NCBI RefSeq assembly: GCF_001677475.2
Contig: NZ_CP015229.1
Source: Escherichia coli
GTDB taxonomy: Bacteria; Pseudomonadota; Gammaproteobacteria; Enterobacterales; Enterobacteriaceae
Reading direction: 5' to 3' (one strand)
Length of the DNA: 64,000 nucleotides
Below, in pieces: positions 18,275 through 20,239 of this stretch. The position numbers and the translations under genes are program-made. Each line of letters opens with the position of its first letter. Position 1 is the first letter of the stretch. The notes beneath the pieces are model-generated. The model searched no databases, was not told the DNA's origin, and saw nothing but the letters and a program-made list of their open reading frames with translations.

Positions 18275-20239
18275 TCAGGCGGCGGTGTTCGCCATACGTT
18301 GTTCGCGGTTTATCGCCTGCAAGGCGGAGACATCAACAATCAGTGCCACGCTGCCGTCGCCAAGAATAGTCGCAGCAGAAATGCCGGGGACTTTGCGATA
18401 GTTACTTTCAAGGTTTTTAACCACAACCTGGTGTTGACCAATTAATTGATCCACAAGCAAGGCGTAGCGGCGACCGCCACTTTGTAAGATCACCACAATT
18501 CCCTGGGTAGCTTCGGTTTTCGCGCCCGCGACGTTGAACACTTTCCACAGTTCGACGATGGGCAGATATTCACCCCGCACTTCCAGCACCCGCTCGCCGC
18601 CTGCCAGTGGATGCAGATCGGCTTCACGGGGTTGCAGTGATTCCATAACAGCATTCAGCGGCAGTATGAAAACTTCATCCGCAACGCGTACGGACATGCC
18701 GTCGAGGATGGCCAGCGTCAGCGGCAGTAAAATGCGGATCGTAGTGCCAGTACCCTGCTTCGACTGGATTTCGACATGACCGCCCATCTCCTGGATATTA
18801 CGTTTAACGACGTCCATGCCGACGCCGCGCCCAGAGACGTCGGTGACCTGCTCTGCCGTGGAGAAGCCTGGTGCAAATATCAGCATCGCGACTTCGTCGT
18901 CGCTCATGTTTTCGCTGACAGTCAAACCTTGCGAGGCCGCTTTTGCCAGAATTCGCTCACGGTTTAGCCCTGCACCATCGTCGGTCACTTCAATGCAAAT
19001 GTTGCCGCCCTGATGTTCGGCAGAAAGAATTAAATTTCCTACGCTGTTTTTACCTGCGGCGAGCCGTTTTTCTGGCAGTTCAATACCGTGATCGAGGCTA
19101 TTGCGTACCAGGTGGGTCAGCGGGTCGATAATGCGTTCTATCAGGCTCTTGTCGAGTTCAGTGGAACTGCCCACCAGCGTCAGTTCTACCTGCTTGCCGA
19201 GTTTTCCCGCCAGATCACGCACCAGCCGGGGATAGCGACTAAAGACATATTCCATCGGCATCATACGAATCGACATCACTGATTCCTGCAAATCACGGGC
19301 GTTACGTTGTAACTGCCCCATGCTGGTAATCAAATCACCATGATTAACCGGGTCCAGTTCGCTGGAACGCTGGGCAAGCATGGACTGGGTGATGACCAGC
19401 TCGCCGACGAGGTTAATTAATTGATCAACCTTTTCTACCGCTACACGGATGCTGGTGGATTCACTACTGCGCGTCGTTTTTTCCCGCTCCACGCGACCGG
19501 TTGGCGCTTGTTCGGCTGCCAGTTTAAGCACTGGTGGGGTGGATATTTTGGGCGAGACTTCTACTGTTTCAAAGGTAATCTGATCGGCTTCAATCACAAA
19601 ACAGAGTACCGCTGTGATGTCATCTTCGGCGATGTCGCCCGTTAATATTGCCGAGAGAGAATCCGCCCCTTTAACCACGTCAGTTAACGTTGTCAGATGC
19701 CCCAGCTCTTCTTCCAGCAGGTCGACTTCCCCGGCCTTCAGGCGCGAAAGGATAATTCGTCGCGGCGACTGACTGCGACTCTGCTCATCTTGCGGTTCAC
19801 TTTTGGCAACCACACTTAATCGGGTCACTGCGGATGGCGTTTCGTCTTTCGCTTCTAATGCCAGTTGACGCAAGGCCTGGCAGATATAATCGAAGCTGGC
19901 GGCATCCGGCTCTTGCGACTGTTTATAAGCGTCGAGCTGTTCTTGCATGATGTCCTTCGTTTCCAAAAACAGATTGATAATGTCGGTGTTGAGTTGCATC
20001 TCACCTCGTCTGGCTTCGTCGAGCAGGTTTTCCATCAGATGCGTGGTTTCCTGCAAAACGCTGAAGCCAAAGGTTCCTGCCCCTCCTTTGATCGAGTGGG
20101 CAGCCCGAAAGATGGCATTCAATTGTTCGGCATCTGGCGCTTCCGGCTGCAAAACCAGCAGATGCTGCTCCATGTCAGCCAACAGTTCGTCCGCTTCATC
20201 AAAAAATGTCTGATAAAAATCGCTTATATCCATGCTCAC
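18275..20239 (-). CDS. cheA: Chemotaxis histidine kinase CheA (long form, GTG start)
   Basis: 672-aa ORF; CheA sequence [10 protein letters not shown] begins at an in-frame GTG (654 aa); internal Met98 at 19946..19948 is the known CheA-short start. Confidence 0.93.

Follow-up and report, generated by a model that had tools for sequence, protein, structure and literature searches.

On the two proposed translation starts of cheA in the chemotaxis region of a non-K-12 Escherichia coli

Where translation of cheA begins, and whether it begins more than once, is the question raised by the 64,000-nucleotide (nt) Escherichia coli stretch analysed here (hereafter the window), in which cheA, motB and the features associated with them lie on the minus strand. 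The long open reading frame (ORF) containing cheA, 18275..20293 (672 codons), opens 54 nt (18 codons) upstream of a GTG at 20239. A preliminary description of the sequence placed the CheA N-terminus MSMDISD at this GTG, 18 residues into the longer ORF, named Met98 as the known start of the short isoform, CheA-short, and noted that the motB stop lies directly beside the cheA start, which it took as a hint of translational coupling. We are highly confident in the reading as a whole that one cheA reading frame, in the motA-motB-cheA-cheW ('mocha') operon, would give rise to two proteins. CheA-long, of 654 amino acids, would arise by initiation at GUG 20239 via pairing of GAGGUGA to the 3' end of 16S rRNA. 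CheA-short (residues 98-654, 557 amino acids, roughly 69 kDa), which lacks His48 along with almost the entire Hpt domain, would arise by internal ribosome loading at AUG98 (19948); in E. coli this is favoured by the GAAGGA ending 4 nt before the codon and by a weakly structured context rich in A/U.

The start of CheA-long

The N-terminus named in the preliminary description lies at 20239-20237, and the same start is used in RefSeq in both K-12 MG1655 and the closest strain, 266917_2. A 701-nt probe spanning the cheA start region found matches in 5378 of 5426 complete E. coli genomes, in which the underlying features are annotated motB and cheA; its identity was 99.9% to strain 266917_2 and 98.4% to K-12 MG1655. 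The RefSeq cheA coding sequence (CDS) occupies locus positions 3262-5226 in both strains, which correspond to window positions 20239-18275, and the annotated end of motB corresponds to 20244. The annotated limits are thus identical to those of the 1965-nt CDS in the window. Database proteins of 654 amino acids named CheA are 100% identical to the window protein, and its first 140 residues match the E. coli CheA chains 6s1k, 8c5v and 2lp4 of the PDB, numbered from MSMDISD. The residue numbering of CheA in the literature (His48, Met98, Leu123/126) likewise counts from the GTG (PMC7750401 for Met98 and Leu123/126), and the GTG start is supported by the fact that the His48/Met98 numbering works only from 20239.

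On the minus strand the junction reads ...CCG AGG TGA CAGC GTG AGC ATG GAT ATA AGC GAT.... The motif GAGGTGA, which ends with the motB stop, forms a 7-bp pairing with the 3' end of 16S rRNA at -11.6 kcal/mol (this pairing energy served throughout as the measure of Shine-Dalgarno (SD) strength), with its GAGG core 7 nt from the GUG, and 'gagguga' has been named as the ribosome-binding site of the long form (PMC8745638). For comparison we assembled 81 sequences, comprising the window and 80 cheA loci from different Enterobacterales species (no Salmonella was among the loci retrieved). The pattern GAGGTGA-N3-5-GTG-AGY-ATG was kept in 75 of the 81, in genera including Citrobacter, Enterobacter, Erwinia, Pantoea, Serratia, Yersinia and Pectobacterium. 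Within these 75 motif-bearing loci the GTG is invariant (75/75) and codon 2 changes only synonymously (AGC/AGT), while the spacer is free to vary both in length (3-5 nt) and in sequence (CAGC, TAGC, TTGC, TACC, CCCC, CCAC and others). Conserved valine codons elsewhere in cheA show a mean codon entropy of 1.5 bits in the 81-sequence alignment, so the invariant GTG behaves like a start codon and not like a valine codon. GAGGTGA is present even where motB stops 10-30 nt earlier; it is an extended SD and more than merely the end of motB. Within the species, the 61 nt centred on the GTG were identical in 5331 of the 5378 E. coli genomes, only 1061 of which are at least 99% identical to the window over the surrounding 701 nt.

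The only serious rival to the GTG is the ATG at codon 3, from which CheA-long would start wholly or partly as a protein of 652 amino acids (MDISDF...), GTG-AGC being a leader conserved for other reasons. Several observations speak for it and weigh against the GTG. As an initiator AUG is inherently superior to GUG, and the ATG, invariant in 81/81 sequences, is as conserved as the GTG. Six loci of the Photorhabdus/Xenorhabdus group read GTA-ACR-ATG and carry a stop in the same frame 0-3 codons upstream; in these bacteria CheA must therefore start at ATG codon 3, with unchanged geometry. At least four of the best 120 hits of a protein database search aimed at Salmonella cheA, all 120 of them E. 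coli variants, are annotated from MDISD (among them P0025 and P0088, of 652 amino acids, and P0001, of 707). Direct start-site data on cheA were found neither in the supplements of a Salmonella N-terminal proteoform paper nor in the text of a Ribo-RET preprint. Against the ATG stands its distance from the GAGG core, 13 nt versus 7 nt to the GUG, as does the pattern described above, in which GTG and codon 2 stay fixed or change only silently while the true spacer drifts; moreover, RefSeq, the PDB and the residue numbering of the literature all begin at the GTG and not at ATG codon 3. On this sequence evidence and the universal numbering, CheA-long very probably starts at GTG 20239, and a start at ATG codon 3 appears very improbable in E. 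coli. Kofoid and Parkinson reportedly sequenced the N-termini of both CheA forms in 1991 and thereby fixed both starts.

An origin further upstream, at TTG 20293 or GTG 20278, would make CheA 18 or 13 residues longer and overlap the end of motB. The preliminary description had pointed to an upstream ATG at 20293 as the start that would overturn its view; the codon is in fact TTG, the one slip among its coordinates and without effect on its conclusion, and upstream of GTG 20239 there is no in-frame ATG, only the TTG at -18 and a GTG at -13 codons. Both are legal starts, E. coli has 25 open codons in frame upstream of the GTG, and an 868-amino-acid MotB-CheA fusion among the database entries shows the upstream extension to be readable. 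However, 49 of the 81 sequences are without any upstream in-frame start codon, the rest having them at scattered positions, and the spacer shifts in length by non-multiples of three, so that the upstream frame is not preserved. In the window GAGG directly abuts the TTG, leaving no spacer, and GTG 20278 is preceded only by a weak AGG 3 nt upstream. Neither codon is used by any annotation in RefSeq K-12, in the closest strain or among the best 120 database hits. These comparisons effectively refute the upstream starts, to which we assign next to no probability.

CheA-long has no Lys or Arg before Arg45, which gives an N-terminal tryptic peptide of 44-45 residues (window 20105-20239), a length that makes the CheA-long N-terminus unlikely to be visible to standard shotgun N-terminomics, the proteomic check suggested in the preliminary description. 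The corresponding peptide of CheA-short, MQEQLDAYK, would be easy to detect. The six loci with GTA (L078-L083, at ~1480-1510) include one unclassified Enterobacteriaceae metagenome-assembled genome (L081).

Internal initiation at Met98

The preliminary identification of Met98 as the start of CheA-short agrees with the window, where codon 98 counted from the GTG is ATG, and with published genetics. CheA-short begins at Met-98, with residues 1-97 missing (PMC7750401); two alternative start codons are used for CheA, and no CheA-short is expressed by a CheA(M98I) mutant (PMC2644175); the two alternative initiation codons complicated experiments in which cheA ribosome-binding sites were swapped (PMC2716512); and the ribosome-binding site of short cheA has been given as 'gaagga' (PMC8745638). 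In the window GAAGGA ends 4 nt before ATG98, in the context ACG AAG GAC ATC. Met98 is thereby supported as the CheA-short start in this strain, its synthesis being taken from the literature on laboratory E. coli. Because His48 lies in the Hpt domain upstream of Met98, a protein started there would contain very little of P1 and no phosphorylation site. According to the literature CheA-short is unable to autophosphorylate, but it binds and localises the phosphatase CheZ. Leu123 and Leu126, which have a role in CheZ docking (PMC7750401), are retained in the window protein within QALRQLAL and are 100% conserved in the 81 sequences.

The nucleotide sequence around Met98 is constrained beyond what the protein requires. 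In a codon alignment of the 81 genes we scored the 423 columns whose amino acid is conserved and degenerate; codon entropy was set against the mean of the same amino acid over the whole gene and taken in 12-column windows, with 5000 permutations. The lowest window of the entire cheA gene covered codons 85-97, with overlapping windows reaching codon 101, and a value as low was obtained in 0/5000 permutations (p<1/5000). Among the 5378 E. coli genomes, 5371 are identical over a 61-nt stretch that has Met98 at its centre. This synonymous constraint, the strongest in the gene, and the identity among E. coli genomes indicate that the internal initiation region is under nucleotide-level selection across the order.

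It might be argued that the role of Met98 is purely structural, within the P1 helix, that the constraint has a source other than initiation, such as RNA structure or codon usage, and that an internal start is incidental in this strain. Met98 does lie inside an invariant 16-residue peptide, a strongly conserved helix, and on this account its invariance alone proves nothing. By SD energy it ranks only 7th among the 48 in-frame ATG, GTG and TTG codons of cheA, which makes an in-frame ATG at 98 unremarkable by itself, and it can be placed in the loop of a 9-bp stem. Yet amino-acid conservation is unable to explain a constraint on synonymous sites that is strongest in cheA exactly at Met98, and the stem is without covariation. 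The window is also identical over the 61 nt at Met98 to laboratory strains (e.g. MC1061) in which the short form depends on Met98 (PMC2644175). It is the cross-species synonymous constraint centred on Met98, together with the published genetics, that raises this codon above chance, and we consider a purely structural role very improbable.

Outside Escherichia the sequence before the internal start differs. The Met98 context CTGTTTTTGGAAACNAAAGATATTATGCAGGAACAG is conserved across Enterobacterales genera, but codon 95 is AAG in only 5 of the 81 sequences and AAA in the other 76, which with codon 96 gives AAA-GAT/GAC. An SD before Met98 is not recognisable in most Enterobacterales (72/80 at -3.3 kcal/mol), so the mechanism proposed for E. 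coli may not hold throughout the order. GAAGGA is nearly confined to Escherichia among the sequences compared, and most species must therefore use other features at this start. One such feature might be structural. The candidate 9-bp stem pairs codons 90-92 with codons 99-101 and places the SD and AUG98 in a 17-18-nt loop, CAGGAACAG replacing CAAGAACAG in most species. It pairs in 95% of cells over 55 distinct sequences, with zero compensatory changes, and shuffled sequences score equally. Folding at the two starts was not unusually stable (z = -0.15 at the long start, +0.76 at the internal start), and no DNA inverted repeats were found flanking the two starts; at the stem this is explained by its need for G-U pairs.

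A further idea is that internal initiation at Met98 depends on a conserved element other than an SD, such as the A/U-rich context or the stem CUGUUUUUG/CAGGAACAG, and that Escherichia gained an SD in addition when codon 95 changed synonymously from AAA to AAG, thereby shifting the ratio of long to short protein; we regard this as unlikely. In a smaller variant of the idea, GUG1 and AUG3 may both be used, giving two CheA-long proteoforms. Met81 (ATG 19999-19997) was considered as a third start and rejected. It is preceded by GAGGUGAG (19997-20007), containing the same GAGGUGA as the long start (-11.8 kcal/mol), but only 1 nt lies between this motif and the AUG, other species do not conserve it, and synonymous sites in codons 77-80 are free to vary.

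The motB-cheA junction

The motB stop does stand directly beside the cheA start, as the preliminary description said: the TGA at 20246-20244 lies within GAGGTGA, separated from the GTG by the four bases CAGC. A ribosome ending motB would therefore terminate directly over the ribosome-binding site of cheA, with the GUG 4 nt away, and some cheA translation would probably follow motB translation, by re-initiation or through local ribosome supply. The gap between motB stop and GTG is 3-5 nt in 61 of 80 sequences, with the stop inside the SD, and the last codon of motB is the rare AGG. Lovdok et al. 2009 found the pairs cheA_cheW, cheR_cheB, cheB_cheY as well as cheY_cheZ all to be coupled, at 0.2-0.6 (PMC2716512). 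motB_cheA was outside their set, so that the case for coupling of this pair comes from its geometry.

The alternative is that the long start initiates independently on its own strong SD and that the proximity of the motB stop reflects compact operon packing. Three observations lean this way and tell against obligatory coupling. The SD is strong by itself, at the 7 bp and energy given above; the SD is still kept in 14 GTG-start species whose motB gene terminates 10-30 nt upstream of that codon; and no stable or covarying structure hides the long start, the consensus fold of the motB-cheA junction being weak (-3.7 kcal/mol) and without covariation, in line with the z-score already quoted. A literature search found no published experiment on motB-cheA coupling, which likewise leaves room for independent initiation. 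On the other side, Lovdok et al. call it typical of coupled pairs for the upstream stop to lie near the downstream SD or start, or to overlap it (PMC2716512), and their four chemotaxis pairs, which belong to the same operons, were coupled without exception. Within the mocha operon itself, the motA stop and the motB start share 4 nt (ATGA) at 21167-21170 on the minus strand, a classic coupling arrangement. Weighing this geometry, we consider translational coupling of motB and cheA about as probable as not, or a little more so, and independent initiation a possibility a little short of even.

The locus, related systems and significance

The minus-strand ORFs of the window follow the order flhD-flhC, motA, motB, the long ORF 18275-20293, cheW, tar, tap, as annotated in K-12 and in strain 266917_2; the window is therefore the chemotaxis region (flhDC/mocha/meche) of an E. 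coli other than K-12. An apparent block of divergence from K-12 before flhD, met in an ungapped comparison, proved to be a shift of register by 1 nt and no true difference. The position of the gene in the motA-motB-cheA-cheW operon downstream of flhDC agrees with that of the CheA family, and domains P1-P5 were found in the protein in order, all above the curated Pfam cut-offs. The features are collected in Table 1. The gap between cheA and cheW is 20 nt (18255-18274).

Table 1. Features of the motB-cheA region in the window, with the Pfam domains of CheA given in residues of the long form
Feature	Position	Strand	Basis or remark
motA	21167-22054	-	ORF list
motB CDS, upstream gene	20244..21170	-	ORF and RefSeq annotation
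TTG opening the long ORF, not a real start	20291..20293	-	GAGG abuts without spacer; absent in other genera
In-frame GTG 13 codons upstream of the proposed start, not a real start	20276..20278	-	not conserved
Extended SD GAGGTGA of the CheA-long start	20244..20250	-	spans last sense codon of motB, AGG (20249-20247), and TGA (20246-20244)
Non-coding spacer CAGC (4 nt), motB stop to GTG	20240..20243	-	variable among species
GTG, very probable start codon of CheA-long	20237..20239	-	RefSeq start; GTG in 75/81, GTA in 6
ATG at codon 3, alternative candidate start	20231..20233	-	invariant in 81/81 sequences
cheA CDS for CheA-long, 654 amino acids and stop	18275..20239	-	translation, five Pfam domains, RefSeq limits
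His48 codon CAC, phosphorylation site only in CheA-long	20096..20098	-	within Hpt match, HSIKGG context
Internal translation-initiation region, codons 85-106	19922..19987	-	suppressed synonymous variation
Possible weak stem, CUGUUUUUG (19972-19964) with CAAGAACAG (19945-19937)	19937..19972	-	predicted fold, candidate
SD GAAGGA of the CheA-short start, from codons 94-96 (ACG AAG GAC)	19953..19958	-	-5.4 kcal/mol
ATG of Met98, start of CheA-short (557 amino acids)	19946..19948	-	invariant in 81/81; literature
cheW	17751-18254	-	ORF list
Hpt (P1)	residues 8-100		Pfam, E = 1.9e-19
CheY-binding (P2), PF09078	residues 161-223		Pfam
H-kinase_dim, dimerisation (P3), PF02895	residues 261-324		Pfam
HATPase_c (P4), PF02518	residues 372-508		Pfam
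CheW-like (P5), PF01584	residues 514-640		Pfam

Several observations were made beside the main subject. An IS3-family insertion was found in cheA after about codon 50 in E. coli ET245 (NZ_CP100978.1, L003; locus 3411-4716), where it splits the gene into a fragment annotated 'Hpt domain-containing protein' and a 5'-truncated cheA, a natural cheA knockout. Three unusual E. coli CheA variants were met in the database (P0001, P0003 and P0118, the 707-, 675- and 868-amino-acid forms). In the 707-amino-acid variant residues ~72-126 are duplicated in tandem, so that the internal start region is present twice, the 675-amino-acid variant has a 21-residue duplication in P4/P5, and the 868-amino-acid MotB-CheA fusion, formed through the upstream ORF extension, is probably a frameshift or assembly error. 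Rfam matches elsewhere in the window comprise C0465 RNA (97 bits, gathering score 40) at 17654-17731 (+), between cheW and tar but on the other strand from the chemotaxis genes, the full-length small RNA MicL (356 bits) at 4088-4395 (-), and a cluster of three tRNA genes at 35958-36256 (-).

The two-start arrangement of cheA is already known and has been textbook knowledge since 1980-1991; the window repeats it base for base. Tandem cheA starts were reportedly described by Smith and Parkinson in 1980, Kofoid and Parkinson in 1991 and Sanatinia et al. in 1995, and McNamara and Wolfe are said to have reported co-expression of long and short CheA in other Enterobacterales in 1997. The E. coli K-12 gene (b1888, UniProt P07363) shares with the window its operon position, CDS limits, GTG, SDs and Met98, and in K-12-derived strains the 61-nt windows at both starts are identical to ours. 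Relative to MG1655 there are 32 nt differences across cheA, with four amino-acid changes (K-12 to window, G132D, P200T, N259S and K484E), and none of the differences falls in codons 75-131 or near the long start. Other Enterobacterales share the motif of the long start and the Met98 context, but mostly have AAA-GAT at codons 95-96 and so are without GAAGGA; Photorhabdus and Xenorhabdus, unlike E. coli, no longer have the GTG and use ATG codon 3 as their start. Among other genes, infB (IF2 isoforms), clpB and mrcB likewise yield two proteins from one ORF via an internal ribosome-binding site and are listed with cheA in reviews and papers. They differ from it in protein and function, CheA-short losing the phosphorylation site and gaining CheZ docking.

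What the present comparison adds is the refutation of the upstream start, the reading of GAGGTGA as an extended SD, and a synonymous footprint at the internal start that extends across Enterobacterales. Further additions are the SD of the internal start, which seems nearly Escherichia-specific, and the shift to ATG codon 3 in Photorhabdus/Xenorhabdus. Beyond correct annotation the importance of these points is little. For annotation they are concrete: longest-ORF gene callers would give CheA 18 false residues, and ATG-preferring callers would drop two real ones, as a few database entries do. CheA-short is invisible to standard annotation despite having its own role in localising CheZ. With the strongest synonymous footprint in the gene lying at the internal start across a bacterial order, cheA is a clean positive control for the detection of internal starts from sequence only.

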